DNA of 12,065 bases from a virus (Duplodnaviria; Heunggongvirae; Uroviricota; Caudoviricetes), in IMG/VR virus record IMGVR_UViG_2579778856_000001, one strand, 5' to 3'. The notes beneath the pieces were generated by a model that was not told where the DNA came from, did not search any database, and worked only from the letters and a program-made list of their open reading frames with translations. A program made the position numbers and the translations under genes. How positions within the stretch are numbered: the stretch's first letter is position 1; each line of letters begins with the position of its first letter. This document shows positions 221 through 12,065 of this stretch, one piece after another.

Positions 221-395
221 CGGCGGTCAGTTTACGCTTACGTCCCTTCTGGTCAAAATGGACGAAGAAATGCTCTGCTTCTTCGACAGCAACGGGCGAA
301 CCACCATGCCCCGTAAAGCTTTCTCCCTGCGTACTGGCGTAACCCGCCGCCAGCTGTTTCCAGACGCCATTTACTTCATTGAACGGGAGTTCTGA
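210..395 (+). pseudogene. Probable C-terminal remnant of the gene that preceded the radC-like gene, cut off by the IS insertion
   Basis: 61-codon ORF whose ATG lies at the predicted IS boundary. The frame only opens at 192 (TAA at 189-191). Its TGA (393-395) sits one base before the radC-like ATG (397), the tight coupling expected of the original operon partner. No recognisable domain. In CP4-type islands the gene upstream of radC-like is usually an antirestriction (KlcA/ArdB-like) or YeeR-like gene; that is inference only. Confidence 0.25.
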
Positions 396-396
396 C

Positions 397-849
397 ATGA
401 CCATGTTTACCCAGCGTGAAACCCGTATCCTTGACCAGGCGCGTGACATTATTAGCCGGTACTACCAGCGTGGGGTTCAACTCTGTTCCCCTGATGATGT
501 TCGACGGTGCGTGATGGTTGAGCTGGCACCGCTTGAACATGAAGAGTTTGGCATCATCCTACTCGATAATCATAATCAGCTGCTGCACCGCGAAATCCTG
601 TTCAGGGGTACGCTAAACTCGGTCAGCGTTCACCCCCGTGAAGTTATTAAGCGTGTGCTGAAACATAACGCCGCCGCCGTCATCCTTGTCCATAATCACC
701 CCAGCGGCGAGCCTGAACCCAGCCGGTGTGACATCCAGTTGACCAAAAAGCTTCAGGAGCTGCTGGAAATACTGGATGTGCGGTTACTTGATCACTTTAT
801 CGTGGCAGGAACTGAAACGGTGTCGATGGCTGAGCGAGGACTGGTGTGA
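397..849 (+). CDS. RadC-like JAB/JAMM-domain protein (DUF2466; YeeS/YfjY/YkfG-type of CP4 cryptic prophages)
   Basis: Translation MTMFTQRETRILDQARDI...HPREVIKRVLKHNAAAVILVHNHPSGEPEPSRCDIQLTKKL contains the complete JAMM signature H-x-H-x7-S-x2-D (HNHPSGEPEPSRCD) and the HPREV motif of the RadC family. The ORF track's TTG start at 379 is less likely than ATG 397 or 403. Confidence 0.85.
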   Translation: MTMFTQRETRILDQARDIISRYYQRGVQLCSPDDVRRCVMVELAPLEHEEFGIILLDNHNQLLHREILFRGTLNSVSVHPREVIKRVLKHNAAAVILVHNHPSGEPEPSRCDIQLTKKLQELLEILDVRLLDHFIVAGTETVSMAERGLV

Positions 850-895
850 TGCTGAAAGTTACTTGGTTTAATGTACGTTATTGCGGGTTACGCGC

Positions 896-1825
896 ATGAG
901 CAGGACAGCGTTGCGTCAGGTCGTGCCGGTGGTGCAAACCACCGTGTTCGATGCGTATATTGTCGGTCTGGCCCCCTCGGGACGGCGAGGTATCACCAGC
1001 CTGTTAAACCGCAGCGCCAGCATACTTAAACACGGTGCGGATGCAGCAGACTATCCGTGGGAACAACTTAACTACGCCGCCGTTGCCAAAGTGCGCGCGG
1101 CACTGCTGGATGACGGTTACGCCGTGTCATCGGTCAACATGGCGCTGTCAGCACTCCGGGGCGTAGCGCAGACGGCCTTTAACCTCAATTACATGGATGC
1201 CGAAACGCTGGCACGTATCCGGTCAGTTAAGCGCGTGAGCGGCGATGTCCAGCGCAAGGGAAGGGCGCTGGGCAGGCAGGAAATCCGGGTACTGATTCAG
1301 GCTGCAAAACAGCATCCGCAATCTGTACGGCGCTGTCGCGATGTCGCCATTGTGCTGATGCTTTGCGGAACGGGCCTGCGGGCCGGGGAACTGGTTAAAC
1401 TTGAGCGCCGGGACTATGACAACGGCATCCTGACGGTGAGGCAAGGGAAGGGGCGTAAATACCGTGAAATTCACGTGGCGGATGCGGTGGACAAGGCTAT
1501 TCGTGCGTGGCTGAAAGTTGGCGCAGACGAGGCTGACAGTGCGTTGTTTAGGCGAATTCAGCGCAGTGGTAAGGTCGCAAGCCAACCGCTGACTACGACC
1601 GGGTTAACGGGTATCCTGGCTGAGTTACAGCAAACGGCAGGTATAGCACGTTTTACCCCGCATGATATGCGGCGCACCTTCATCACCCGTTTGCTGGAGC
1701 AGGGCGTGGATATCAATACCGTCCGCCAGTTGGCAGGCCACAGCGACATATCCACGACGACGCGCTATGACTGTCGTGGTGATACTATGAAGATCAGTGC
1801 CAGCAAGCGCATCAGATGTTTTTAG
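896..1825 (+). CDS. Tyrosine site-specific recombinase / integrase (small, about 309 aa, XerD-like size)
   Basis: Catalytic-domain signatures are present: LRAGEL (Arg), GKGRKYREI (Lys), HDMRRTF (His-x-x-Arg), GHSDISTTTRY (His ... nucleophilic Tyr). ATG 896 preferred over the track's TTG 881. No N-terminal DUF4102/SAM-like extension typical of P4-type integrases. Confidence 0.85.
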   Translation: MSRTALRQVVPVVQTTVFDAYIVGLAPSGRRGITSLLNRSASILKHGADAADYPWEQLNYAAVAKVRAALLDDGYAVSSVNMALSALRGVAQTAFNLNYMDAETLARIRSVKRVSGDVQRKGRALGRQEIRVLIQAAKQHPQSVRRCRDVAIVLMLCGTGLRAGELVKLERRDYDNGILTVRQGKGRKYREIHVADAVDKAIRAWLKVGADEADSALFRRIQRSGKVASQPLTTTGLTGILAELQQTAGIARFTPHDMRRTFITRLLEQGVDINTVRQLAGHSDISTTTRYDCRGDTMKISASKRIRCF

Positions 1826-2426
1826 CAGTTGAGGCGTTGCCAGACTCGGTTTCAGTTTCATCTTCAGCACTCAACCGCGCGTACTTTTGATTCTGGATGT
1901 TAATTTGTGCATTGATATTTTCAGGCTGAAGCATCCACGCAACATCCTCACGCGCCCATTCTTTACCGTCAGAGAGTCGTTTTAACCGGGGTTTCCATAT
2001 TCCATACTCATTAAGTTTTTCTGCTACCGAAGCATATTTCTCACGATCTGACTCCCCCGTATGAAGCTTGTCAAAACGACCTTTTACAAGCTGGTAAACA
2101 GTATAGATTTCCAGTGCCTTAGGGGACCTGGCCGGGACTATCATGGGGTGTTCCTCCGGCCTATAAATCCCGTTTGGCTCTCCCTCATTGAGCAGGTCAT
2201 TAAACATGTGGTTCACGCAGGCACTCAGCACATCTGCCGCTTTCTCCGCAGCGAATTTATCCGGGCTAAAACCCGCTCCCGTCAGTTTCCGGGCAATCAG
2301 TGCCAGTTTTTGCCGGGTATCCCGTCCCAGATAAAGCTTCTTCTCCAGAAATTCAAAGACCTCGTTACTGCTTTTCCGTTCCCGGTGGCATCTGGCGTCA
2401 GCCTTGTTGCTTTGGTTACCAATCAT
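1812..2426 (-). CDS. Hypothetical protein (204 aa), convergent with the integrase and divergent from alpA; candidate island repressor or accessory gene (the position yfjH occupies in CP4-57)
   Basis: Long minus-strand ORF. The second ATG (2426) is preceded by GGAGGTGA with a 4-nt spacer (minus strand reads ATGGAGGTGACTATGATTGG). Predicted product MIGNQSNKADARCHRERKSSNEVFEFLEKKLYLGRD... is mostly helical and acidic at the C-terminus, with no domain I can name. Its 3' end overlaps the int stop by about 14 bp. Confidence 0.6.
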   Translation of the reverse strand: MIGNQSNKADARCHRERKSSNEVFEFLEKKLYLGRDTRQKLALIARKLTGAGFSPDKFAAEKAADVLSACVNHMFNDLLNEGEPNGIYRPEEHPMIVPARSPKALEIYTVYQLVKGRFDKLHTGESDREKYASVAEKLNEYGIWKPRLKRLSDGKEWAREDVAWMLQPENINAQINIQNQKYARLSAEDETETESGNASTAKNI

Positions 2427-2445
2427 AGTCACCTCCATGACAGTG

Positions 2446-2457
2446 TTTTGTACAAAA
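2446..2457. promoter_or_regulatory. Perfect 12-bp palindrome TTTTGTACAAAA, 20 bp upstream of the 204-aa gene start, in the divergent int-side/alpA-side control region
   Basis: Read directly: ...cagtgTTTTGTACAAAAtatcacc... is self-complementary over 12 bp. It sits in the 5' leader/promoter of the minus-strand gene, so it is a candidate operator. Confidence 0.35.
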
Positions 2458-2648
2458 TATCACCATTGAGCCTCAGTGAAAATTGCTTCTTTATATGACC
2501 GTTCTGGAGACAGAAATAGATGATCTCGAATGACATCCACATTAAAGATGCCCTTAACGTGCTCAACGAAGGCATCGTTGAGTGAATCCTTGCGTTTTTT
2601 GGTGGTTGTAAATAACCCGCTCCTGAAACAGCTCAAAGGAGCACAAGC

Positions 2649-2846
2649 ATGAACACCAACCGTATTTTGCGTAAAAAAGAGGTACTTCATCTGACGGGGA
2701 ACTCGTCAGCGACGTTGTACCGACTCATCTCGAAAGGATTCTTTCCTTTGTCAAAGAGGCTAACGGGCGACAATGGCCGGGCGGTAGGCTGGCTGGAGAG
2801 TGATATCAATAACTGGGTTAACAGCCGTATGCAGGCGGGAGAATGA
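2649..2846 (+). CDS. alpA: AlpA-family phage transcriptional regulator (MerR-like HTH; P4 Vis / CP4-57 AlpA type)
   Basis: 65 aa: MNTNRILRKKEVLHLTGNSSATLYRLISKGFFPLSKRLTGDNGRAVGWLESDINNWVNSRMQ. Shows the canonical AlpA pattern (L/I)R.xEV..LTG.S.sTiYRli..G.FP....L....VGW.esei..W. AGGAGC lies 7 nt upstream of the ATG. Confidence 0.85.
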   Translation: MNTNRILRKKEVLHLTGNSSATLYRLISKGFFPLSKRLTGDNGRAVGWLESDINNWVNSRMQAGE

Positions 2847-2847
2847 A

Positions 2848-3315
2848 ATGAAAGAGATAAAATCGAAAACCAGTTCTGCGAAAAAAACGCTGGTTCCTTG
2901 GTTCGAAACTATGGGGAAACAGGTTGGTTTATCACAAGAAACGATATCAGCAGTGTTAAAGGAGCAGCGTTTACGGATACGTAAGCTTAACTACGCATCT
3001 GCATATACAGTGTCCAATATTCTCATACAGGATTGCGGCGGGGCCGATGACATGTGGAGCAACTACGCTAAACTGGCGCTTATCCTTGAGCGTTGTAAAT
3101 ACATTCCCTGCGGGAGCAGGGCCTGTGCATATTGTTCTACCGCTCAGCAATTACATTATCAGGGGGTGGATGTAACCGGGGAATACGCTTTATATCAGTT
3201 GCCTGAGTTATTTTTAGATTTTTTAGAAACAAACGACAAAAATTCCTCTTATCATTGGGATTACAATAAGTTAGTTGAGCGGCATGAAGATGCTCAGGCG
3301 AGGTCATTCGGGTAA
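2848..3315 (+). CDS. Hypothetical protein (155 aa), translationally coupled to alpA; Cys-rich patch CKYIPCGSRACAYC
   Basis: ATG 2848 lies 1 nt after the alpA TGA (GAATGAAATGAAA), with GGGAGAA upstream. The track's 2800 start is an in-frame upstream ATG inside alpA and is less likely. The C-x4-C-x4-C-x2-C cluster suggests a possible metal site. No family recognised. Confidence 0.6.
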   Translation: MKEIKSKTSSAKKTLVPWFETMGKQVGLSQETISAVLKEQRLRIRKLNYASAYTVSNILIQDCGGADDMWSNYAKLALILERCKYIPCGSRACAYCSTAQQLHYQGVDVTGEYALYQLPELFLDFLETNDKNSSYHWDYNKLVERHEDAQARSFG

Positions 3316-3347
3316 TAGCCATTTCTGTATGGTGAAAAACTGACATA

Positions 3348-3380
3348 TTACCCTGCCACTGCATTTTGGTGGCAGGGTAA
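3348..3380 (+). promoter_or_regulatory. Perfect 12-bp stem / 9-nt loop hairpin (TTACCCTGCCAC-TGCATTTTG-GTGGCAGGGTAA) between the 155-aa and 284-aa genes; no U-tract
   Basis: Read directly from sequence. There is no T-run after the stem, so it is not a classical intrinsic terminator. The loop plus stem carry CCACTGCATTTT, a 12-mer repeated in the iteron cluster at 4335-4346. Confidence 0.4.
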
Positions 3381-3402
3381 TCAATACAGCTAGGAATATT
3401 AA

Positions 3403-4257
3403 ATGAACGATTCTTATTACTTCAGAACATCTGACCCGGATTACATTCGTCACGCACCGTCAATGCTTGAGATTTTAAGTAAAGCATTCCCCACTATTAT
3501 TACCCAGCAGGAAAGTGAGTATGAACTGCAGCGTCTTAACCATTTACTAAATAAACTGAAAGGCAGCAATCGCTGCTACAACATCATTGCTCAAAAACTA
3601 AGGCAGTGCAGAAACGGATCTCCATGCAACAGTCTTATATGCCCGCATTGCCAGCGGGAACGCATTCTGGCGCAACTGGCTATGTTGCATGTCTTGCCGG
3701 GGAATTCAGCAGAATACGTGGGAGTGGTCCTGTTTTTCAACAAGGATACGCAAACTCCGCCGCCATGGAAGAACATTGGGGCGCTCAGGGCGCAAATCGG
3801 TCGTTATAAGCAGAGGATAAGCCGGGTACTTAACCGCCTGGGGTACGCCGGTCCGGCCACAGGCACCTTCAGTATGATGCGACATATGCCTGATGGCCCA
3901 GAAGAGCGTATTTTCTGGGTTCCACAGTTGTGTTTGTTCCTGCCCAATGACAGTACGTTGATTAAGGGGCTAAAAGCGCATATGTCGCGAAGTGGTGGGG
4001 CATTCATTGATGCATCGACGCTTAACACACCAGTGATCGTGCTCAGGTATAAAGATCCCGCGAGACTGATTTCATGCGCCCTGAATCCAGTCTGGCACAC
4101 AGCAGATTACACACTGACTGATAAAGACGCTCTTGTTAAGTCAAGAATGGAGCTACTGAAAGGCCGGACACTGTTAAAAAGTCTGCTTACCCTGGACTCA
4201 CTCGGAACAGGTGTCGTTTCTTTTTCGTTTGGGCAACCCCCAGGGAAAGTGCACTGA
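3403..4257 (+). CDS. Hypothetical protein (284 aa) with cysteine cluster RQCRNGSPCNSLICPHCQRER; candidate replication/DNA-binding component of the alpA operon
   Basis: ATG 3403 preceded by AGGAATATTAA. Continuous 284-codon ORF in the same orientation as alpA. C-x5-C-x4-C-x2-C resembles a zinc-ribbon. No confident family assignment. Confidence 0.65.
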   Translation: MNDSYYFRTSDPDYIRHAPSMLEILSKAFPTIITQQESEYELQRLNHLLNKLKGSNRCYNIIAQKLRQCRNGSPCNSLICPHCQRERILAQLAMLHVLPGNSAEYVGVVLFFNKDTQTPPPWKNIGALRAQIGRYKQRISRVLNRLGYAGPATGTFSMMRHMPDGPEERIFWVPQLCLFLPNDSTLIKGLKAHMSRSGGAFIDASTLNTPVIVLRYKDPARLISCALNPVWHTADYTLTDKDALVKSRMELLKGRTLLKSLLTLDSLGTGVVSFSFGQPPGKVH

Positions 4258-4272
4258 TTTACCGGTAATGCA

Positions 4273-4404
4273 GCAACTGCAATGCACTTTTGCTGTTGAT
4301 TAAATTGCAGTGGAACGACGAATAACAGCGGCAACCACTGCATTTTCGTTGTTGTAAAACTGCAAAGCTTGCCAGTGATTTTGATGGCGCTGATGCACTT
4401 TAAC
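4273..4404. repeat. Iteron-like direct and inverted repeat cluster (candidate replication origin or regulator binding array)
   Basis: GCAACTGCAATGCACTTTTGCTGTTG (4273-4298), an inverted copy AATTGCAGTGG (4303-4313), GCAACCACTGCATTTTCGTTGTTG (4331-4354), AACTGCAAAG (4358-4367), TGATGCACTTTAAC (4391-4404). Core (A/C)ACTGCA(A/T)T recurs five times. A/T-rich TTTAAC patches follow. Confidence 0.45.
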
Positions 4405-4833
4405 ATTCCAACTGTCTCGATTTTAACGCAACCGTCTGTTTTCTGCAGGGGCTCACGGATGCCTCTGCACACCCGATCCTTACCATCAACTGACGAGTTA
4501 GCGCATCTGTGAGGGCTTTCTGTGTTTCTGTCAGTGAATATTCTACACACAATGGGGGGAGCGGTCAGCGAGCACCATTGCCATTGAGCGCAACGGAGAG
4601 CTTGGGGACATGCAGCACTACGGAGGCTTCATCTCCTTCTCATGTCATTAAACGATACGGCGAACGAGCGCAGCGAGTGAGGGAAGGCGTCAGCCTGAAC
4701 AGGGGGAAAGATTTGCGACCGGAGTGGAGCAAATCATGGGCGGAGCCCATCCTCGCGACTGGGGTTTTGACTTTCGAATTGCCCAGCGTTGAGTTTGGTT
4801 AATGTAGTGAGACGAGGATGCTGAGAGGGGACC

Positions 4834-6231
4834 GTGAGTACTGAAAAGGATTATCCAGTGAAGATCCCTAAGTGGGTTTATGACCGTATTACTGAAATAA
4901 CGGATTATGTCGTGGGGGATACGCAATGGGCTGTTACCCGGCGGCAGACAGTACGGTGGTTCCTGGCTCACATATGGCTGGAAACAGACGATGATGGCTG
5001 GACTATATGCACTGTCCGGGATATCCGTAGCAGCTATGCCAGTCTCCTGGGACAGTGTGAAATTAGTTACCAGGGGGAGTGCTTTATGTCCACGCTAACT
5101 GATTTCCTGCCGACACTTTCGGATATTGAATTTCGTGCAGGAAAAGCGAGCAAAGACCCGGAAAAGCGTAGAGCCAGTGCATGGCGGTTCAACCCCCTGC
5201 TGCCTGTGTGTGATGAGTCTGCCAGGGGTAAGTTAAATCTGGTTGACTTGGATACTGGTGAGTCTGTTAGTTTTAGAGCTCTGCTTCAGGGGAACGGGAA
5301 AGCTCCTGGGCATGCGATAGATGTAGAGAAACGCCAGACGGCCCTAAAACAAACGGAAAAGGACTTCTTGGCCAAAGTTGGGCGGGGGCGCATGAGTATA
5401 CAGTTTGTGAAGGAATTGCGTAGCCGTGAGCCGGATCACTATTACCGCGCAGGAATACGCAGCCTTAACCATCTCTACAATGGCAGGATTGAGGGACAAT
5501 ATGTCACTTACGACCATCATTATCGTCTGACGTTTGGAGGGCGGTATTATGATCAAGCTTTCCAGAATCTGCCCAATGAGTTCAAAGCTAAATTTCGGAC
5601 CGGGTTACTCAACTATGACATCGAAGCGTGCAATCTGGCCTGTCTGAACCATCTGTTCAGACAGTATGACGTCGATTATCGTGTGAAGTCATCGATATAT
5701 AAAACCATGATGGAACATACCGGGCTGACCCGTAAACAGTGCAAACAGATGGTCCATACCACCACCTACAGAATTGGGCGTGTGACTATTGGTGTTAATG
5801 ATGGCCTTGGGGCAAAAGTGTATGGATGGTGCGGTAACAGCAAAAAAAAGGCGCTAAAGATTTTGCGTTGGTGGAACCGTTATATCAGTCCATTGAAATC
5901 TGCGCTTGAGTCATTGCTGGAACGTGTGCATGGCGCACACCGCAAGAGTTGTTCATCACCGCGTAACTATCACAGGTACGCTAATGAAGTCGGATTAATA
6001 CTGGATCTTAATAGTGAGGTGTATCAGCGTGAAAAGACTCACCATCATCAATATGCGCGGAATAAGGCACTGTTGGCGTTTATGATCTGTGGTGTGGAGC
6101 AGGCGTATATCCGTGAGGTTGTCAGTATGAACCCTGGTCGTGTCTGCATGCTGGATCATGATGGGGTAGTGGCAACGGGCGCGCTTTCACTACCGGACTG
6201 GCGTGGTTTCACGATGAAAGTGAAGGACTAG
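4834..6231 (+). CDS. Hypothetical protein (465 aa) occupying the position of yfjI in CP4-57; carries motifs reminiscent of right-hand (PolA/T7-like) polymerase motifs A, B and C
   Basis: GTG 4834 is the first start after the in-frame TGA at 4822, with GAGAGGGG 3 nt upstream. Motif-like segments: LLNYDIEACNLACLNHL (aa 258-274), RKQCKQMVHTTTYRIG (aa 300-315, R-x3-K-x7-Y) and MLDHDG (aa 439-444). Spacings of about 42 and 139 aa are similar to Klenow's D705 / K758 / D882. Whether this is a real polymerase fold is unverified. Confidence 0.7.
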   Translation: MSTEKDYPVKIPKWVYDRITEITDYVVGDTQWAVTRRQTVRWFLAHIWLETDDDGWTICTVRDIRSSYASLLGQCEISYQGECFMSTLTDFLPTLSDIEFRAGKASKDPEKRRASAWRFNPLLPVCDESARGKLNLVDLDTGESVSFRALLQGNGKAPGHAIDVEKRQTALKQTEKDFLAKVGRGRMSIQFVKELRSREPDHYYRAGIRSLNHLYNGRIEGQYVTYDHHYRLTFGGRYYDQAFQNLPNEFKAKFRTGLLNYDIEACNLACLNHLFRQYDVDYRVKSSIYKTMMEHTGLTRKQCKQMVHTTTYRIGRVTIGVNDGLGAKVYGWCGNSKKKALKILRWWNRYISPLKSALESLLERVHGAHRKSCSSPRNYHRYANEVGLILDLNSEVYQREKTHHHQYARNKALLAFMICGVEQAYIREVVSMNPGRVCMLDHDGVVATGALSLPDWRGFTMKVKD

Positions 6232-6298
6232 CTTACTTTCTTGAATTTAACTATCTGCGATCTCTGATAAGGGCGTATTACGTTGTCAATCATAATGG

Positions 6299-6328
6299 GA
6301 TATGCGCATTGGAACGATGTGCATATCC
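6299..6328. repeat. Imperfect 12-bp inverted repeat GGATATGCGCAT-ggaacg-ATGTGCATATCC between the 465-aa gene and the IS30-like end
   Basis: Read directly: 11 of 12 bp complementary, 6-nt spacer, no flanking T-run. Could be a weak terminator, a protein-binding site or part of an eroded att/recombination site. Confidence 0.35.
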
Positions 6329-6355: not shown

Positions 6356-7050
6356 TGTGAGTTCAACGGGTCGATGCAACGCTGTCCCTAATCAAGGGGG
6401 ACGTTGCCATGAAACGAAGAACTCGTATTAACTACACGCCAGAGCAAAAGGTGATTATTTGGGACAGATATAAGCAAGGTGATTCCCTGCATGATATCCC
6501 CCAGAATGTTCGACAGATTTCACTCTACTATCATGCCTACAATCCACCAGGCCGGTGGCTACCGTCCTCCCGTGCGAAAGCGGCACCGGTTAGCGTTTTC
6601 GCTTGATGAAAAAGAGGAGATATCCAGAGGACTGGTAGCAAAACGCATCATCAGGGACATCGCTGCTAAATTATCAATAGCTCCCTCAACGATTAGCCGC
6701 GAGATCAGGAGGCACGGCGGTGCAAAACAATACCGTGCAGCAAAAGCCGATCCTGCTGCGTGGGAAAATGCTCTGAGACCAAAACCTTGCAAGCTAATTG
6801 AAAGCCCCACATTGTGTAAAATCATTGCAGAGAAGATGCATCAGGACTGGTCGCCGGAACAAATTGGCGGTTGGCTAAAACGCTGTTATCCCGATAATCA
6901 GGAAATGCATGTGTCACATGAAATGATTTATAAAACGCTTTTTATACCAACCCGGGGAGCTTTAAAAAAAGAGCTGCAGCAATGCCTCAGAAGCGGAAGA
7001 GTAGTGCGTAGATCCAAAACCTCATCACTTAAAGTAAACAGAGATACATT
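6356..7050 (+). mobile_element. IS30-family insertion sequence remnant (left IR plus the 5' two-thirds of the transposase gene; 3' end deleted)
   Basis: 6356-6380 TGTGAGTTCAACGGGTCGATGCAAC resembles the IS30 left terminal IR (TGTAGATTCAATTGGTCAACGCAAC, from memory). The transposase start lies about 53 bp inside, as in IS30. Homology to the IS30 transposase stops near aa ...KVNRDT (about 7048), well before the DDE domain. Confidence 0.7.
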
Positions 7051-7090
7051 CTGGTCACGAATGCCCGGTTGTTCGTGCTTTGCGTTTTAA
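6409..7090 (+). pseudogene. IS30-family transposase, frameshifted (in the C5 run near 6500-6505) and C-terminally truncated
   Basis: Frame 1 (6409..) MKRRTRINYTPEQKVIIWDRYKQGDSLHDI matches the IS30 N-terminus pattern MRRTFTAEEKASVFELWKNGTGFSEI. Frame 2 (from about 6489) ...RMFDRFHSTIMPTIHQAGGYRPPVRKRHRLAFSLDEKEEISRGL...WSPEQIGGWLKR...YKTLF... matches the IS30 HTH region (...ERKRAVAHLTLSEREEIRAGL...WSPEQISGWLRR...YKTLY). The switch between frames occurs at atcCCCCCag. The last about 13 codons (FWSRMPGCSCFAF) are non-homologous read-through. Confidence 0.75.
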
Positions 7091-7227
7091 TCGCATTTTA
7101 CAGTTTCTGCCTGCGTGCAGAGGTTGATGGTATTTTCTGAAAAAGCGGCTCGCTTTGCTAATGCATATGGCACAAATACAACAGTTTGTGTCATTCTGAC
7201 CCATCTTTATACCGCGACGGTGGAAAC

Positions 7228-9798
7228 ATGGATGAGCTGCTAACCCTTGGCTGCATTGCTTTATTCTTCGCACTGGTGGTGGTTCCCATCCTCGCGATTA
7301 TCGCGCTCAGCCGCAGCACGGCTGTTCGTTCTGAGCTGGCGACCCTGCGTCGCCGGGTGGAGGTGCTTGAGCAGCGCGGTGTGACTGAAGCACCCGCCAC
7401 AGTGGTAACAACTGTGCCGCAGAGTGTTTCGCAGATGGTTGTGCCTGTTGAAACGTCTTCGCCTGCGGTTAACATCGTGCTGTCGGAGCCTGTGGCTGAT
7501 GTCACGCCTGAGTCCGTTGACCCCTGGCGTCCACAACCGAAGCCGCAAAACGAGGCGCTACCCACACCAGCGGTCGAACAATCTTCCGCTTTTGGTGGGG
7601 TGATGTCGTCCCTGGTGCGCTGGTTTATGCAGGGCAACCCGCTGGCAAAGCTGGGTATTCTGCTTCTCTTCCTTGGCTTCTCCTTCCTGCTGCGTTATAC
7701 GGTTGAACACTCCCTGTTCCCGCTTGAGCTACGTCTGGTGGCGACTTCGCTGTTTGCGATTGCCCTGCTGGTAGTGGGCTGGCGATTGCGGCATAAACAG
7801 CTGGTTTATGCGCTGATCATACAGGGTGGAGCTACGGGGACGCTCTATCTCACCGTTTTTGGCGCATTCTGGCTCTGGCAGATGCTGCCGATGACGCTGG
7901 CGTTTGCATTACTGGTGGCGATTTGCGCGGCGAGCGTGGGACTGGCGATTATGCAAAAAGCGCTCAGCCTCGCGATGCTGGCAAGTATCGGTGGCTATCT
8001 GGCACCGCTGTTGCTTTCCACCGGCGGCGGTAGTCATGTGGCGCTCTTCTCTTTCTACCTTCTGCTTTCCGTCGGTATTCTCGCCATCAGCATCTGGCAA
8101 CACTGGCGCGAGCTTAATCTGCTTGGCCTGTTATTTACCTTTGGTATCGGCGGTCTTTGGGGACTCGACGGCTATCGATCAGAGTATTACCTGAGCAGTC
8201 AGCTTTTCCTGATAGCCAATACGATCATTTTTGGTGTGCTGAGCGTGGCGCTATCGCTACGAGCACAGGAGAAAGGTAAGCAGATTATTGATGGCGTGCT
8301 GTTGTTTGCATCGCCGCTGGTCGGTTTTGGCATGCAGTACGCCATAACCCGGCATATGGAATATGGTCCGGCGCTTAGCGCGCTGGGTTACGGCGGTTTC
8401 TATCTGGCGTTAGCATGGCTTGCATTGCGTCGCTATCCCTCTTTGGGGAGGCCGCTGGTGCTGGCGGCGCTGGCGCTGGGTGGGGCATTTACCACGCTCG
8501 CTATCCCACTGGCGCTTTCGGCCCGCTGGACGGCGATGGCCTGGGCGCTGGAAGGTCTCGGCATCCTCTGGCTGGGCGTGCAACAGCAGCAGCGGCGTAT
8601 GAGCTATAGCGGCACTGCGCTGCTGGTGCTGGCAGTGTGCAGCGCGCTGTGGGCGCAGATGAACGGGATGAGCGCGCTTTCTCTGGTGCTAATCTTTGCC
8701 GTACTCAGCCTCAGCTGGCTGGCTGCCGCCTGGCTGTGGCGCAATATTCAGTTGCAGGGTAGTTGGGTTCTGTTGGCTGGCGGTTTGATCTTCTGGATAA
8801 TCGCGCTCATTGGGGCATCGCAACTGGTGCTGAAAAAGGACTCGCTGGTGCTGTCTGGCGTGCTGGCGTTAATGGCGATATCGGTCTGGGGCTGGCGGAT
8901 TGTCTCTGGTCGTCTGGCCTGGTGGGAGCTGGATGTCAGCAAATGGTTGCTGTGGCCGACGATGCTGGTGATGCTGCTGTCTCAAATTTCACAACATGAG
9001 ATTTTTGCTGCGGGCTGGCAGAATCTGGCCTGGTGTCTGGCGTTACCCGCTGCGGGGGCATTGCTCTGGCGTGATGCTGAGACGTTGCCGCCGCGCCTCT
9101 CCAGACTGGCGCACCTTTCACTCTTCTGGATGATTCTGCTCGCGCTGGCGGCGGAGCTATTCTGGTTTGCGCAAGATCTGCCATGGGGCATGGCGGCGTG
9201 GGGCTCCGGCCTGATGATGGCCGCGGGGGGCCTGCTCATCTTTCTCGTTCATGAGGCGGTTCATCGTCAGCTATGGCCATTCCGAAGCTGGCCCGCACTC
9301 TACGCTTCTCAGGCGATGATACCGGTAGCTGCGGTATTGGTTGTTCTGCTAGTACTGACGAATTTGCAGGATGGCGTAGTTTATCGCCAGACCTGGCTGC
9401 CGCTGGTGAATCCACTGGAGGAGGGGGCCGCTTTTGCGCTACTGGGACTCATTGTATTTTATCGCGTTTCGCAGCGCTTTTTCCCGGTGCAGATTTCGGT
9501 ATGCCGTCCCTGGCCGCTCATTGCACTGCTGGCGCTTAGCTTCTGGTGGCTGAATGGCATCCTGCTGCGCGCATTGGCCTGGTACGGCGAAGTGCCCTGG
9601 AGCGCGGAAACACTGTGGCATTCGCGGCTGATTCAGACCTGTTTTGCCCTGTTCTGGATGCTGGCGGCATTAGTGGTGATGCTACGTGCGACCCGGCGTT
9701 GCTCACGTCGCGAATGGCTTTGTGGATCCGTATTGTTAGGGATTGTTATTGTGAAACTGATGTTGGTAGACAGTGCGCGTGGCGGCGGCCTGGCATGA
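7228..9798 (+). CDS. Large polytopic inner-membrane protein (856 aa). Architecture: N-terminal TM + coiled-coil + Pro-rich linker + more than 20 TM helices, as in DUF2339-family proteins. Probably chromosomal backbone
   Basis: ATG 7228 is preceded by GGTGGAAAC. The track's 7186 start lacks an RBS. Uninterrupted 870-codon frame. Very hydrophobic, L/A/W-rich repeats of predicted TM segments. Visibly higher GC than the flanking island genes. Family call is from recalled architecture only. Confidence 0.75.
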   Translation: MDELLTLGCIALFFALVVVPILAIIALSRSTAVRSELATLRRRVEVLEQRGVTEAPATVVTTVPQSVSQMVVPVETSSPAVNIVLSEPVADVTPESVDPWRPQPKPQNEALPTPAVEQSSAFGGVMSSLVRWFMQGNPLAKLGILLLFLGFSFLLRYTVEHSLFPLELRLVATSLFAIALLVVGWRLRHKQLVYALIIQGGATGTLYLTVFGAFWLWQMLPMTLAFALLVAICAASVGLAIMQKALSLAMLASIGGYLAPLLLSTGGGSHVALFSFYLLLSVGILAISIWQHWRELNLLGLLFTFGIGGLWGLDGYRSEYYLSSQLFLIANTIIFGVLSVALSLRAQEKGKQIIDGVLLFASPLVGFGMQYAITRHMEYGPALSALGYGGFYLALAWLALRRYPSLGRPLVLAALALGGAFTTLAIPLALSARWTAMAWALEGLGILWLGVQQQQRRMSYSGTALLVLAVCSALWAQMNGMSALSLVLIFAVLSLSWLAAAWLWRNIQLQGSWVLLAGGLIFWIIALIGASQLVLKKDSLVLSGVLALMAISVWGWRIVSGRLAWWELDVSKWLLWPTMLVMLLSQISQHEIFAAGWQNLAWCLALPAAGALLWRDAETLPPRLSRLAHLSLFWMILLALAAELFWFAQDLPWGMAAWGSGLMMAAGGLLIFLVHEAVHRQLWPFRSWPALYASQAMIPVAAVLVVLLVLTNLQDGVVYRQTWLPLVNPLEEGAAFALLGLIVFYRVSQRFFPVQISVCRPWPLIALLALSFWWLNGILLRALAWYGEVPWSAETLWHSRLIQTCFALFWMLAALVVMLRATRRCSRREWLCGSVLLGIVIVKLMLVDSARGGGLA

Positions 9799-9918
9799 TC
9801 AGACATGAGATAAATGAAGGGGGATCCGTGAGATAAATAACGAATTGGAGTGGGTTAACATGGGTTCTGGTGAACAGAACTGAAATTCTTTTCCGCTATA
9901 CGATAGATAAGTCGGGCA

Positions 9919-9948
9919 TTGAAATCATCCTTCCTGGCAACTTAGAAT
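9919..9948 (+). promoter_or_regulatory. Sigma70-like promoter TTGAAA-17 bp-TAGAAT upstream of the 53-aa ORF
   Basis: Read directly: TTGAAA (9919-9924), 17-nt spacer, TAGAAT (9943-9948). Predicted TSS about 9955, leaving a roughly 37-nt leader to ATG 9992. Confidence 0.4.
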
Positions 9949-9991
9949 CGAGTTTGCTGAAACATGACCCGCAACAAAAAGGATGATTCCA

Positions 9992-10153
9992 ATGACTACT
10001 CAAAACAATAAGCATGATAGCCTGGATTACTCAGAAAAGCCCAAAAGCAAGCACATCGTGACGTTCGAGCGCGATTCCGGTAGAAAAGGAGAATCGTCTT
10101 CCTCTGCCAATAAAACCACTATGCCGGCAGCCCCTGCCCCAGGGAAAAAATAA
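9992..10153 (+). CDS. Small hydrophilic protein (53 aa; MTTQNNKHDSLDYSEKPKSKHIVTFERDSGRKGESSSSANKTTMPAAPAPGKK); not in the supplied ORF track (below its length cut-off)
   Basis: ATG 9992 has AAGGA 8 nt upstream and the promoter above. K/S-rich, no TM, predicted disordered. Stop TAA 10151-10153 lies 3 nt from the stop of the convergent membrane gene. Confidence 0.4.
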   Translation: MTTQNNKHDSLDYSEKPKSKHIVTFERDSGRKGESSSSANKTTMPAAPAPGKK

Positions 10154-10156
10154 ACA

Positions 10157-10789
10157 TCATTCATCGTTCGTTGCACGAACGCGCCTGATCTCCACTCTGG
10201 CAATCTGATCTGCTGGAATATAGGTTGCCAGAGCTCCCCAGTACTTATCAACCACGCCTTTATACTCTTCCCATTCGTTACTGCCTGAAGGGCTGCTGTG
10301 CGTGACGTAAAGAACCATATCGCCTTTATTCCCCAGGGTAAACGGACCGTTAGGCCACTCTTCAAAGTTCCCTGGCAGCCGTGACATCATACCGGAACCA
10401 TCGCGAAGAATCACTCTGACCTCGGTAACGCTGAAGCCTGTTTGATCAAACATTGCCTGCCATGCTGAGCTGGTATCGTCAGACCATGAAATATCATTAT
10501 TCCACAGTAATCTGTACATCCATTTGCGACCGTACCTGCGCCACCACGCACCGCATGTAAGGGCACACAGAAGTGCTGGTGGTGTTGCCAGCCAGGCATT
10601 CAGACCTGCCCACATAACAGCCTGGTAAGCCATCATTGCTGTCAGGCCAAAAATCAGCGAAGAAAAAGTCACCTCAATGGGCTTGTGGTGATCCTTCAGT
10701 CCCACATTCGCAATAAAATACCCAATATAGCCACTGGTCAGGGTCACCAGTGTTGCCCATGGCAGATTTAACAACGAAACGTCAAACAT
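10157..10789 (-). CDS. Hypothetical membrane protein (210 aa): three N-terminal TM helices plus about 120-aa soluble C-terminal domain
   Basis: Start ATG 10789 (MFDVSLLNLPWATLVTL...) is preceded by GGGAGAAAAT. The track's longer start (10867) would run through the mor terminator hairpin and is rejected. TM segments approximately at aa 8-30, 38-62 and 68-83. The C-terminal domain ...GNKGDMVLYVTHSSPSGSNEWEEYKGVVDKYWGALATYIPADQIARVEIRRV is of unknown family. Confidence 0.65.
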   Translation of the reverse strand: MFDVSLLNLPWATLVTLTSGYIGYFIANVGLKDHHKPIEVTFSSLIFGLTAMMAYQAVMWAGLNAWLATPPALLCALTCGAWWRRYGRKWMYRLLWNNDISWSDDTSSAWQAMFDQTGFSVTEVRVILRDGSGMMSRLPGNFEEWPNGPFTLGNKGDMVLYVTHSSPSGSNEWEEYKGVVDKYWGALATYIPADQIARVEIRRVRATNDE

Positions 10790-10824
10790 ATTTTCTCCCT
10801 GCATCCTGAATACTAAAGAGAGAG

Positions 10825-10866
10825 CATAAAAAAAGCACGGTAAGGGGTCTACCGTGCTTTTATACA
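10825..10866 (-). terminator. Rho-independent terminator of the gemA-mor transcript (hairpin AAAGCACGGTA-AGGGGTC-TACCGTGCTTT; T7 run on the minus strand); partly bidirectional
   Basis: 11-bp perfect stem 10832-10842 / 10850-10860, 7-nt loop. The minus strand continues TTTTTTTAT (complement of 10825-10831). The plus strand continues TTTTATAC. It lies 38 bp downstream of the mor stop. Confidence 0.65.
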
Positions 10867-10903
10867 ATAAGGAGATTTTTGAAAGGACTTTAACAAGCAG
10901 GAA

Positions 10904-11302
10904 TTATCTGGATTTGTTAACGTCTTTCGTCTCCTCTGGCAGATCTTCATCAAACAACCTGCCCTGCATCCGATCCAGTTCTTCTTTTCTGACCCGCTTA
11001 ACCACGCTGTAGACCCACTGAAGCGAAACACCAAACTTGCGGGCCAGTTCGTGGTGGTTGCGTCCGTTAAACTCCCTGAAGATTTCCCGGTCGCGCTGAC
11101 TGACCTTCCATACCATGCCCATCGGGAAATAAACGTTTTGCCCGCCCCAGACCTGCATCATTCGGTTCGCGACGGCCTGACCAATCTGGTCGGCAACTTC
11201 GGGCTCAATATCAATAATCTCGCGAACGGTCTCAGAGGTATGCTGTGCCAGTTCCACCAGGAGTTCCGGCCCCTTACTTCGAAACTGATTCAGGTCGCTC
11301 AT
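10904..11302 (-). CDS. mor: Mor-family transcriptional activator (phage Mu middle-operon regulator / C family), 132 aa
   Basis: MSDLNQFRSKGPELLVELAQHT...VYFPMGMVWKVSQRDREIFREFNGRNHHELARKFGVSLQWVYSVVKRVRKEE. The RDxxIxxxFNGxNxxELAxK(F/Y)G(V/L)Sxxx(V/I)Y C-terminal HTH is characteristic of the Mor/C family. RBS GGAGTCAAAC-ATG. Overlaps the gemA-like 3' end by 29 bp. Confidence 0.75.
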   Translation of the reverse strand: MSDLNQFRSKGPELLVELAQHTSETVREIIDIEPEVADQIGQAVANRMMQVWGGQNVYFPMGMVWKVSQRDREIFREFNGRNHHELARKFGVSLQWVYSVVKRVRKEELDRMQGRLFDEDLPEETKDVNKSR

Positions 11303-11726
11303 GTTTGACTCCCGCAGCTCTGCGCTGCCACTTCTTCAGTTTCTCAATAACACTGCTTGCCTGTTCAGTACTGAGCCAGCGCAGGGCGCTGATGCCCGTT
11401 TCCCGCTTGATCCACCGCGCTAATGCATTTTCTGAACGGTCACGAACAATGCCGGCAGCAGCCATTTCAAGCCATAGCGCACGGATTTTCCTGGACTGCG
11501 GATGGTTATCCAGCGGTAAACCGGAGCTGGCTTTTCCGGCAGGCTTAACGCGAAAGCCTTTCCTTTTCATGGATTCCAGCACGCAGTTTAGTTGTGTGGT
11601 ATCCATTCCTTTGGTTGAGGCTTTACCGGTCAGCCCCTGTAACATCTGGCGGTAGGTGTCTTCATCCATACCCAGTTCATTACGGGCAATATGAATGAGC
11701 TGGATAAGACGTTGTTTAGTCATCAT
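11274..11726 (-). CDS. gemA: Mu gp16/GemA-like protein (DUF1018 family), 150 aa
   Basis: From the ATGATG at 11726, with AGGAG 5 nt upstream: MMTKQRLIQLIHIARNELGMDEDTYRQMLQGLTGKASTKGMDTTQLNCVLESMKRKGF... The N-terminal motif is typical of Mu-like gp16/GemA proteins, as is the location immediately upstream of and overlapping mor. The track's earlier start (11765) is in frame but lacks an RBS. Confidence 0.7.
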   Translation of the reverse strand: MMTKQRLIQLIHIARNELGMDEDTYRQMLQGLTGKASTKGMDTTQLNCVLESMKRKGFRVKPAGKASSGLPLDNHPQSRKIRALWLEMAAAGIVRDRSENALARWIKRETGISALRWLSTEQASSVIEKLKKWQRRAAGVKHERPESVSK

Positions 11727-12065
11727 CGTTGCTCCTTTTACCTGCGCCACCGATATAATCGACATATAAAGGAAGCGCCACAGGCCAGCACAGGAACATC
11801 ACCGACCAGCTAATCCAGTAGCCAGCACCACTGTAACGTGAATAAAACCCTGAACGGCGGTGCAGTTCAGCAGTACACCAACCGACAAAACAATACCAGA
11901 ACAGGGCACATACAACAGATTCAGCCGTCATTCTGAATATCCCCCCAACTGATATGAATATTACGGGCAGCAATGACAGGGTCGTTATTCCACCATGCAC
12001 CTGACATGTATTTTTCAACCTGTTCGCGTCCGGCAATAACACCAATTGTGATCCCCGGCCTGACG
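11716..12065 (-). CDS. Hypothetical small membrane protein, partial (frame open to the window end); its 3' end overlaps the gemA-like start
   Basis: Minus-strand frame is open from the window edge (12065) to TAA at 11716-11718. Predicted product has two hydrophobic segments (LSLLPVIFISVGGIF, VVCALFWYCFVGWCTA) and an acidic tail. The internal TTG/GTG start at 12045/12042 is uncertain. Confidence 0.4.
   Translation of the reverse strand, partial: SGRGSQLVLLPDANRLKNTCQVHGGITTLSLLPVIFISVGGIFRMTAESVVCALFWYCFVGWCTAELHRRSGFYSRYSGAGYWISWSVMFLCWPVALPLYVDYIGGAGKRSNDDD

Follow-up and report, generated by a model that had tools for sequence, protein, structure and literature searches.

Rep_1 proteins are the HUH initiators of pC194 and pUB110 (PMC5714925), and the origin-binding domains of papillomavirus E1 and polyomavirus large T are inactivated HUH domains that serve in origin recognition (PMC13595969). 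In the CcPol-MP/PolA-SSB systems of SCCmec and other Bacillota elements, a truncated family-A polymerase and a small partner that binds template DNA together act as a primase (PMC10061031, PMC7581432). Among the integrase-bearing islands P4, PICI and PICMI, in which AlpA heads an operon with the island's own replication proteins, PICMI is reported to replicate as rolling-circle-like concatemers (PMC10803314).

The window analyzed here, a 12,065-nt stretch of DNA from the IMG/VR record IMGVR_UViG_2579778856_000001 (Caudoviricetes), resembles these islands in its integrase and in an AlpA-led operon with candidate replication proteins of its own. Whereas P4, PICI and PICMI encode a primase or primase-helicase (DUF3987/DUF5906 in PICMI), this operon encodes a Rep_1-like protein of 284 aa; no capsid or packaging genes were seen in the window. 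Literature searches for the combination of AlpA, HUH, and satellite returned no paper describing it.

Results

A selected gene in an AlpA-led operon

The open reading frame of the 284-aa protein is a real gene under purifying selection. An AGGA sequence lies 7 nt 5′ of its ATG, and a pair of E. coli alleles gives a dN/dS of 0.20. The product, listed in RefSeq as "hypothetical protein" (WP_001000136.1), is encoded in approximately 570 of 5426 complete E. coli genomes, ST131 included. In many ST131 genomes an ISEc52 lies between the gene and its two downstream neighbors, the structured element and the 465-aa protein gene (Table 1); the module is therefore dispensable for host viability and may be inactive in those genomes. 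IS insertions are common within the module, and the copies P0010, P0011, and P0014 are frameshifted or truncated, while full-length copies of the sub-clade defined below are retained in several genera at a constant position.

Table 1 Features of the island module, with coordinates in the window.
Feature	Coordinates	Strand	Description
radC	379-849		ahead of the recombinase gene
Upstream module	881-2438	.	XerC-like tyrosine recombinase 881-1825 (+) and divergent 208-aa gene 1812-2438 (-); Pfam
alpA, 65 aa	2649-2846	+	first gene of the operon; Pfam Phage_AlpA, E 2.6e-12
155-aa ORF	2848-3315	+	N-terminal helix and Cys4 module (RCKYIPCGSRACAYC), without HUH core
Hairpin	3347-3381	+	between the 155-aa ORF and the 284-aa gene; no U-tract after it
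284-aa gene	3403-4257	+	Rep_1-like protein, predicted HUH fold; N-terminal Cys4, catalytic residues all substituted
Cys4 cluster	3607-3651	+	codons C69-C83, C-x5-C-x4-C-x2-C, then R85/R87
GTFSMMRH, G154-H161	3862-3885	+	counterpart of GxxExDxH: E to S157, D to M159, H161 retained
WVPQLCLFL, W172-L180	3916-3942	+	degenerate HUH motif, compared with WxPHxHLL: H to Q175, H to C177
LISCALN, L222-N228	4066-4086	+	degenerate Tyr motif, compared with QxSYxFK: Y to C225, K to N228
Three TGCACTTT motifs	4246-4401	.	4246 minus, 4283 plus, 4394 plus; interleaved with CACTGCA/hairpin repeats
Structured non-coding element, ~200 nt	4540-4760	+	between the 284-aa and 465-aa genes
465-aa partner	4834-6231	+	Enterobacterales and jumbo-phage family with family-A-polymerase-like motifs

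A rare family remotely related to Rep_1 initiators

The window protein has no match in Pfam, PHROGs, NCBIfam, or PADLOC, and searches of PDB sequences with the protein and with its family profile gave chance matches only. Word-indexed protein searches with a single protein or a profile returned close relatives alone; the family was opened up by an exhaustive HMMER search of representatives, which uncovered a rare family of 46 clusters. Its consensus comprises C..C....CPxC (CxxxxCPxC), VTLIFY, GxxExDxH, WxPHxHLL, and QxSYxFK. The alignment analyzed below contains 38 full-length representatives of 50%-identity clusters, 18–55% identical to the window protein. A 364-aa gene at locus L012 was considered as a member and rejected.

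Eleven of the 38 members match Pfam Rep_1 singly (best E 1.5e-6), and the five matches read in detail begin at the Cys cluster and are collinear (18.8–21.7 bits, E 1.6e-4 to 1.2e-3). The family bit scores read are all below the Pfam gathering threshold for Rep_1 (PF01446; 33.2 bits). When profiles were compared with hhalign against pC194 RepA and pUB110 Rep, the whole family gave a probability of 93.8% (E 1.8e-7) and the clade with intact catalytic residues 95.9% (E 6.3e-9), with a shared register through the Cys knuckle, motif I, the Glu, and HUH. The profile of the sub-clade that contains the window protein reaches 6% by itself, so the link to Rep_1 runs via the intact clade. The first-pass annotation had recognized no family for this protein; on the sequence comparisons, the family is a remote homolog of the Rep_1 (pC194/pUB110) rolling-circle initiators. 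No match to an unrelated enzymatic family was found, and the family that is matched is replication-related, with its enzymatic residues lost here.

The order of motifs is that of Rep_1, namely a CxxxxCPxC-x-(W)R knuckle, motif I strand, Glu strand, HUH, and Tyr. Unlike in Rep_1, the first Cys precedes the second by 5 residues rather than 22, the genes lie behind alpA on Gram-negative and marine integrative islands rather than on small Gram-positive plasmids, and the window protein is without Glu, HUH, and Tyr. The family is a branch of Rep_1-type initiators not filed before, located on integrative islands behind AlpA.

The Cys cluster is exactly as first described, C69-x5-C75-x4-C80-x2-C83, and its conservation holds up among homologs. 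All four residues are present in 36 of the 38 representatives, some of them about 20% identical; C80 is invariant, and C69, C75, and C83 each occur in at least 90%. The cluster had been read as zinc-ribbon-like and as a metal-binding module for DNA interaction; it is not a free-standing zinc ribbon: the stretch C75-x4-C80-P-H-C83-Q-R-E-R has the C-x4-C-P-x-C pattern and basic residues of the Rep_1 knuckle. In hhalign C75, C80, and C83 align with CKNRFCPVCAWR of pC194 RepA and with its pUB110 Rep counterpart, whereas C69 is not covered by the alignment. In the AlphaFold model C69 follows helix 57–67, and C80/C83 stand at the start of helix 81–96. The cluster offers four conserved candidate metal ligands in two close pairs, as in zinc ribbons and zinc knuckles, and is, from its sequence, probably a metal-binding module with zinc as the likely metal.

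Catalytic residues are replaced in one sub-clade

AlphaFold returned a pLDDT of 41 from a shallow alignment, and the 38-sequence alignment was used instead (pLDDT 89.9, pTM 0.88, beta-alpha-beta-beta-alpha-beta core). The model predicts an HUH-endonuclease (ferredoxin-like) fold for residues ~100–280 and a helical region carrying the Cys4 knuckle for residues ~20–96. Foldseek found nothing significant for the model in the PDB; a BFVD search placed unnamed viral proteins at the top (E 4.8e-5) and Microvirus replication initiators further down.

Of the 38 representatives, 26 retain both the His pair of HUH and the Tyr of its motif, and nearly all of these also have the Glu; the motif PHxHLL is intact in 26 of 38 family members. 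The family Glu aligns in hhalign with that of pC194 'LEITYN'. The Glu and both His are missing from the remaining 12 representatives, the window protein included, and their Lys is replaced by D, N, or G; four of them still have Tyr at the motif column. In the window protein the degenerate HUH motif falls in strand E171–181 of the AF2 model. The 12 substituted members are monophyletic in a neighbor-joining tree. Their sub-clade is old, with identity down to ~20%, and has conserved motifs of its own (PQxRL and DPxW); the substitutions Q, R/C, and D/N are themselves conserved throughout it.

As the Glu, both His, and the Tyr are replaced, the window protein probably has no nuclease activity, and its sequence points to a DNA-binding derivative that is probably nuclease-dead; sub-clade relatives with the motif Tyr may keep residual chemistry. 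An HUH-type fold (here predicted) without nuclease residues yet kept under selection is what characterizes inactivated HUH domains.

Synteny and exchange of the downstream partner

The order radC, recombinase, small minus-strand gene, alpA, and family member recurs in loci L002, L004, L006, L012, and L017, and from the recombinase onward also in L005, whose contig ends before radC. An AlpA gene is found immediately 5′ of the family member in L003, L004, L005, L006, and L009–L013, and in relatives the HUH-like gene begins right at the alpA stop or overlaps it. In the window the 155-aa ORF stands where the first tandem paralog would, the same arrangement being found in Cedecea (L020). This ORF is related to the family over columns 29–85 (hhalign against family profile A3, probability 94.6%, E 6.8e-8; hmmsearch, E 6.6e-7).

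Association with the 465-aa gene, proposed in the first-pass annotation, extends well beyond the window. Ten of the loci read carry an intact 465-aa-family gene (the window, L001, L017, L020–L024, L005, and L011), and in every one of them sub-clade genes, from one to three in tandem, lie behind alpA and directly 5′ of it. Because the window, L001, and L017 represent a single island lineage in E. coli, the ten loci amount to approximately eight independent lineages. A sub-clade gene is paired with a distant 495-aa homolog of the 465-aa family in L012; L002, where IS2 adjoins, and L006 have sub-clade genes but no 465-aa gene. On their integrative islands, intact members directly follow alpA, with DUF927 on the 3′ side where downstream sequence is readable; in the intact-clade loci L004 and L007 the downstream protein is DUF927 and not the 465-aa protein. 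The spacer before DUF927 in L004 contains three tandem TGATTGGG repeats. The partner switches from DUF927 to another protein exactly where the catalytic residues are lost.

The 465-aa protein contains the motifs FGGRYYD..FQNLP, NYDIE, RKxCKx7Y, and MLDHDG, and its family and jumbo-phage homologs share the PolA order GGR..FQNLP, (N)YD/WD..SSQ, RRAAK..Y/F, and HDG. Pfam and PDB sequence searches with the 465-aa family, the distant island homolog, and the jumbo-phage homolog returned no match, and no significant sequence match of the 465-aa protein to any PolA was found. A joint profile compared with Klenow and T7 gp5 reached an hhalign probability of only 12% (E 0.0024), with the first three motifs aligned with Klenow; the HDG motif was aligned only in an earlier, lower-scoring alignment (1.6%). 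A family-A polymerase identity for this protein, as its motifs would suggest, is a lead rather than a result. No helicase domain was found in the 284-aa protein or adjoining it.

Conserved elements flank the gene

A hairpin ahead of the gene had been noted from the sequence, and it is borne out by folding: its 13-nt arms (3347–3359 and 3369–3381) are perfectly complementary and form a 14-bp stem (-29.8 kcal/mol, z -3.98). In Cedecea L020 the stem is retained, partly by G-U wobbles, and the 12-mer is not. This 12-mer, CCACTGCATTTT, has direct copies at 3356 and 4335 and an inverted copy with one mismatch at 4302; it was rejected as a conserved iteron, as neither the orthologous Cedecea hairpin nor the distant loci contain it.

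The region 4273–4404 had been taken for an iteron array. Tandem Repeats Finder detects no tandem array there, the 12-mer is lineage-specific, and the elements conserved across genera are instead TGCACTTT dyads and a structured element further downstream. All three copies of the TGCACTTT 8-mer in the 12-kb window fall within 4246–4401, and L005, L011, and L021–L024 have the same 7–8-mer at the corresponding position, arranged as inverted pairs. The cluster is a candidate for protein-binding dyads or an origin. Hairpins with common loop and stem sequences are present on both sides of the 284-aa gene, and folding of 4255–4420 as ssDNA is weakly better than that of shuffles (z -1.1, -2.2).

The structured element consists of the blocks TACACACAATGGGGGGAGCG..CAGCGAGC..CCATTG; CGAACGAGCGnAGCGAGTGAG; ATTTGCGAC..GAGCAAAT; and GGGC..GCCC, and is conserved in Escherichia, Cedecea, Yersinia, Serratia, Edaphovirga, and Budvicia. 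Its structure comprises 35 pairs, with 97.9% of cells paired. Eight pairs are changed on both sides compared with 0–1 in slid controls, and the observed value was reached by 0/500 shuffles. An Rfam scan of 3300–4900 returned no match.

Discussion

Membership in the Rep_1 lineage upholds the link to DNA replication that had been proposed for the 284-aa protein as an initiator or helper. The role of a conventional nicking initiator does not fit the replaced Glu, HUH His pair, and Tyr. We consider it moderately probable that this protein, as a nuclease-dead Rep_1 relative, serves an island replication module as the subunit that recognizes its origin or template. From what is known of HUH enzymes, intact members would nick an origin and thereby initiate rolling-circle replication, or transfer, of the island once it is excised. 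The sub-clade would have arisen once, by catalytic loss, followed by diversification and tandem duplication under continued purifying selection. Expressed from the AlpA-led operon, the 284-aa protein would have as its binding sites the TGCACTTT dyads and hairpins just 3′ of its own stop, and/or the structured element, and would then position or activate the 465-aa polymerase-like protein, by analogy with the small DNA-binding partner in CcPol-MP primases. Conservation and the predicted fold suggest that it binds zinc and DNA; its DNA target and its cooperation with the 465-aa protein are inferred.

The functional model is adopted by analogy with E1 and large T, which have an HUH fold minus the nuclease residues, as is predicted here; sequence kinship with them is not claimed. 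In the viruses the domain is joined to a superfamily 3 helicase and has no Cys4 knuckle, whereas the proteins described here stand alone, are tandemly duplicated, and are paired with a polymerase-like protein. CcPol-MP is similar in that the 465-aa motifs follow the PolA order and a small putative DNA-binding protein is encoded beside them. It differs in that the partner here is predicted to be of HUH type and not an OB fold, is encoded upstream, and belongs to Enterobacterales, and in that the 465-aa protein has no significant PolA match and no helicase gene was seen adjoining. A more far-reaching proposal, which we hold tentatively, is that the dead HUH proteins (one to three paralogs and the Cys4-only mini-protein) form with the 465-aa protein a new two-component replicase/primase. 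A polymerase-A-derived enzyme would be targeted by a nuclease-dead Rep domain to the ssDNA or RNA element at 4540–4760, which would be the origin, primer, or template, on Gram-negative islands and in some jumbo phages.

A transcriptional repressor or activator of the island module is a rather unlikely alternative: with the TGCACTTT dyads as its operator, it would control either the structured RNA or the 465-aa gene and take no direct part in DNA synthesis. Dyad-symmetric conserved 8-mers between the two genes would suit such a function, as would the predicted zinc module and DNA-binding fold, and rolling-circle Rep proteins are known to autoregulate. However, AlpA, a dedicated regulator, already heads the operon, and two to three divergent tandem paralogs strictly paired with one enzyme family look more like subunits of a machine.

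We regard it as improbable that the 284-aa protein is an active rolling-circle initiator or relaxase that nicks the nearby hairpins through a non-canonical site, for example one in which Q175/C177/H161 hold the metal and C225 or some other residue serves as nucleophile. The predicted fold and Rep_1 ancestry, the gene-flanking hairpins with their shared loop and stem sequences, the retained H161, and the motif-column Tyr of four sub-clade relatives are consistent with such activity. Yet Glu, His, His, Tyr, and Lys are all replaced in the window protein, the replacements Q, R/C, and D/N are conserved in the sub-clade, to our knowledge no HUH enzyme works without the His pair and Tyr, and the DUF927 partner is exchanged just where these residues are lost.

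There is little to recommend the gene as a decaying remnant of a former Rep gene, functionless today. Its lost catalytic residues, the frameshifted or truncated copies, and the frequent IS insertions would be expected of one, but the dN/dS of 0.20, the old monophyletic sub-clade with Cys4 and motifs of its own, and full-length copies always in the same position in several genera argue for maintenance. Very unlikely indeed is a theta-type initiator outside the HUH lineage, whose zinc ribbon would read tandem iterons at 4273–4404 and melt the origin: the conserved Cys4 and the short repeated motifs downstream agree with it, but the Cys motif is the Rep_1 knuckle, no tandem array is detected, the 12-mer is limited to the closest lineage, and Pfam, NCBIfam, and PHROGs reveal no similarity to winged-helix Rep proteins (Rep_3/RepA-type).

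The recognition-subunit reading thus preferred gives a lineage and a candidate role to a "hypothetical protein" of about one in ten complete E. coli genomes, including ST131. The family also constitutes a natural experiment, in which an intact clade is encoded with DUF927 and its sister clade has lost the site, been duplicated, and is paired with a polymerase-like protein and a structured element. Many mobile islands carry phage-defense cargo. If cooperation with the 465-aa protein is true, the module would be a new way for mobile islands to begin their own replication, and would give bacteria an equivalent of the inactivated HUH domains that bind origins in papilloma- and polyomaviruses. Should the replicase/primase proposal also be true, the pair would have been invented independently of CcPol-MP and in parallel to it, and would provide the first case in bacteria of an HUH domain reused to read an origin or template.

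A rare family of Rep_1-like descent

The gene for the 284-aa window protein is real and under constraint: between two E. coli alleles with 90% identical proteins, dS is 0.216 and dN 0.043, and the dN/dS of 0.20 indicates purifying selection on the reading frame. A 90%-identical E. coli copy (L017:5018-5971, WP_022645570.1; L-numbers denote loci read for comparison) has lost its stop codon, and 33 extra codons run through the TGCACTTT/hairpin region to give 317 aa.

Direct searches of the window protein against Pfam, PHROGs, NCBIfam, PADLOC and PDB sequences returned no match, and the first-pass annotation had recognised no family; a word-indexed protein search retrieved close enterobacterial copies only. 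Searching 1.84 billion representatives exhaustively with HMMER recovered 46 proteins, making this a rare family. The family consensus (C..C....CPxCxRxxR; VTLIFY; GxxExDxH; WxPHxHLL; RPM; QxSYxFK) itself reads like a rolling-circle initiator.

Three independent lines tie the family to Rep_1 (PF01446), the HUH initiators of pC194 and pUB110 (PMC5714925): Pfam matches, hhalign and an AlphaFold model. The Rep_1 model is matched individually by 11 of 38 members (best E 1.5e-6), and the five matches read in detail start at the Cys cluster and continue collinearly. Against the authentic pC194 RepA and pUB110 Rep sequences from plasmid records, hhalign gave the family a probability of 93.8% (E 1.8e-7), rising to 95.9% (E 6.3e-9) with the intact clade, whose members keep the His-x-His pair and the Tyr; the register shared with Rep_1 takes in the Cys knuckle, motif I, the Glu strand and HUH. 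Structure prediction, also proposed in the first-pass annotation, yielded a confident AlphaFold model from the 38-sequence alignment (pLDDT 89.9, pTM 0.88) with a beta-alpha-beta-beta-alpha-beta core. A fold search of a viral-model library gave unnamed top matches (E 4.8e-5) and also listed Microvirus replication initiators, and the search against solved chains held no Rep_1 protein among its matches; these model-based comparisons are compatible with the Rep_1 link but not decisive. Every Pfam Rep_1 score read falls under the curated threshold, so the family is a new remote branch rather than a Pfam member. Descent of the window protein from a Rep_1-like HUH ancestor is very probable.

The zinc-ribbon-like Cys cluster described earlier has exactly the reported pattern (C69-x5-C75-x4-C80-x2-C83), and its conservation, a check proposed in the first-pass annotation, held up among 38 full-length members that share 18-55% identity with the query: C80 is invariant, C69, C75 and C83 each occur in at least 90%, and all four are kept in 36. 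The cluster probably binds zinc. The upstream 155-aa ORF, which matches the family with an hhalign probability of 94.6%, is a stand-alone mini-paralogue that stands in place of the first paralogue in the window and in Cedecea (L020). The first paralogue is full-length at this site in other genera, and Budvicia has three copies in tandem.

Features of the window and their comparative context
Feature	Position (strand)	Details
XerC-like tyrosine recombinase (314 aa) and divergent 208-aa gene	881-2438	directly 5' of alpA, beside radC
155-aa ORF	2848-3315 (+)	probably translationally coupled to alpA; family's N-terminal helix and Cys4 module only (RCKYIPCGSRACAYC)
Upstream hairpin	3347-3359 / 3369-3381	13-nt perfectly complementary arms; folds as 14-bp stem, z -3.98
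Target gene	3403-4257 (+)	284 aa; AGGA 7 nt 5' of ATG; RefSeq: hypothetical protein
TGCACTTT motifs	4246 (-), 4283 (+), 4394 (+)	sole three copies in the 12-kb window
Structured element (predicted)	4540-4760 (+)	5' of 465-aa gene
465-aa protein	4834-6231 (+)	homologues also at L012:9749-11236, L027:4962-6578
IS30-like transposase remnant	6409-7090	directly after 465-aa gene; split into two frames that overlap (ORFs of 65 and 203 aa)
DUF2339 membrane-protein gene	7186-9798	seemingly truncated compared with ST131, in which a DUF3999 gene comes next
Mu-like prophage end	9800-12065	after DUF2339 gene; PHROG 12870 protein; Mor 10904-11302 (-); GemA 11274-11765 (-)

A monophyletic sub-clade has lost the catalytic residues

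The motif table of the 38 members separates two groups. The intact clade (26/38) has the His-x-His pair and Tyr, with Glu present in nearly all. The other group (12/38), a sub-clade that includes the window protein and is monophyletic in a neighbour-joining tree, has these residues substituted. In the window protein, Glu is replaced by S157, the two His by Q175 and C177, Tyr by C225 and Lys by N228, and H161 is the sole survivor of the ExDxH strand; most sub-clade relatives carry Arg in the column of C177. The window protein is thus likely to be catalytically inactive, and residual nuclease activity is the less probable alternative. A functionless remnant is improbable, since the substituted members form a single clade with conserved motifs of its own (PQxRL; [VA][FL][DN]PxW) and retained Cys4, and the resulting picture of one loss followed by long, constrained diversification fits a changed job and not a pseudogene.

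The gene belongs to a conserved island module

The window is a segment of an E. coli genomic island whose 2400-6300 stretch is present in 596 of 5426 complete genomes, almost all chromosomal; dhaR and ychF flank the island in ST131-type strains. In the 3' half of the window, RefSeq labels the equivalent of the IS30-like remnant a frameshifted partial transposase, and the arrangement beyond it suggests that a Mu-type element has inserted into the island of the window strain.

The conserved order radC, XerC-like tyrosine recombinase, small divergent gene, alpA, family member occurs in E. coli, on a Salmonella plasmid, on metagenomic contigs and in one complete genome. At almost every locus read, the family gene starts right at the alpA stop or overlaps it, which suggests translational coupling. 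The recombinase and divergent gene are arranged in the same way in L002, L004, L005, L006, L012 and L017, and the divergent 208-aa gene has no family matches. The XerC-like protein is a second recombinase, separate from the P4-type integrase of the islands; tyrosine-recombinase-like relaxases such as MobK exist (title of PMC8152469). Beyond the module lies variable cargo, mainly phage-defence genes (McrBC, restriction-modification, AbiE, a retron and a YobI ATPase).

Intact-clade members are followed 3' by a DUF927 protein (L004, L007), and sub-clade members by the 465-aa family. The spacer before the DUF927 gene in L004 (7925-8110) contains TGATTGGG(T) in three perfect tandem copies, which are candidate iterons of the active enzymes. 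A profile scan of loci fetched via the 465-aa protein or via HUH-family members found one to three tandem sub-clade genes directly upstream of an intact 465-aa-family gene in 10/10 loci (the window, L001, L017, L020, L021, L022, L023, L024, L005 and L011), the window, L001 and L017 being E. coli copies of a single island lineage. L012 has a sub-clade gene beside a distant 495-aa homologue of the 465-aa family (probability 96%); the exceptions are L002, where the gene is adjoined by IS2, and L006, with degenerate fragments. The target gene is coupled to alpA upstream and the 465-aa family downstream.

The 465-aa protein belongs to an unannotated family: no match to it came from Pfam, PHROGs, NCBIfam, PADLOC or PDB sequences, and its homologues are restricted to Enterobacterales islands and a group of jumbo phages of Erwinia, Dickeya and Yersinia. 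The invariant motifs of the family, most clearly in the phage homologues, resemble family-A polymerase motifs in order and approximate spacing: FGGR..FQNLP would correspond to PolA TGRLSS.PNLQNIP, NWDMKSSQF/NYDIE to motif A DYSQIELR, RRAAKVCLYGTIF/RKxCKx7Y (also RRAAK..Y) to motif B RRSAKxxNFGxxYG, and EHDG/DHDG to motif C HDE. An hhalign comparison with Klenow aligned the first three motifs at only 12% probability (E 0.0024, two-sequence template), and an earlier attempt against family-A polymerase gave 1.6%. A polymerase-like identity is offered as a lead. It is relevant because, on SCCmec and further mobile elements, truncated family-A polymerases working with a small DNA-binding partner serve as primases; a priming role has likewise been suggested for the 'TV-Pol' polymerases found in transposons and viruses (PMC10061031, PMC7581432).

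Conserved dyads and a structured element follow the gene

The first-pass annotation had placed a hairpin and an iteron array on either side of the gene. The hairpin is real. Its counterpart in Cedecea (L020:4487-4525) keeps the stem, in which three + strand pairs are G-U wobbles that would be mismatches on the other strand; this points to a role in RNA (processing, stability or attenuation) rather than to a DNA iteron. Copies of the 12-mer CCACTGCATTTT do occur at 3356 and 4335, with an inverted one-mismatch copy at 4302, but Tandem Repeats Finder detected no tandem array. The proposal of an iteron-binding initiator or helper is supported in part: the Cys4 cluster is conserved, but a Rep_1 relationship emerged and the array did not. 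A theta-type iteron binder is an improbable alternative.

The stretch between the target gene and the 465-aa gene carries conserved dyads as well as a structured element. The 7-8-mer TGCACTTT forms inverted pairs at the equivalent site in loci whose proteins share only 40-55% identity. The ~200-nt element is a mosaic of blocks conserved in six genera, with equivalents in L020-L024, L005 and L011; RNAalifold predicted 35 pairs, and on that alignment 97.9% of cells are paired, both sides changed at 8 pairs versus 0-1 in slid controls, and 0/500 shuffles reached the observed value. Rfam gave no match for it, and it may act either as RNA or as single-stranded DNA. A 97-aa ORF over it (4509-4802) is probably spurious, as relatives differ by indels whose lengths are not divisible by three. 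Many ST131 and other genomes have an ISEc52 (L001:16152-17320, equivalent to a site between about 4405 and 4540 in the window) that lies between the TGCACTTT cluster and the element, the window copy being uninterrupted; in other alleles the module has acquired IS3 or IS1182.

A putative recognition subunit

Rep_1 initiators and inactivated HUH domains are already known. The literature searched contained no description of this family or its AlpA association on integrative islands, nor of a probably dead, tandemly duplicated sub-clade paired with a structured element and an unrecognised polymerase-like protein.

HUH domains bind DNA in single-stranded and hairpin form, and those inactivated in papilloma- and polyomaviruses serve as origin-recognition domains (PMC13595969). 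We infer that the window protein binds DNA; given these precedents, a non-catalytic recognition subunit is the best-supported reading, and a pure transcription factor is a less probable alternative. AlpA would switch the module on, and the window protein would then recognise an origin or template for the 465-aa protein. There is about an even chance that it is the DNA-recognition partner of that protein.
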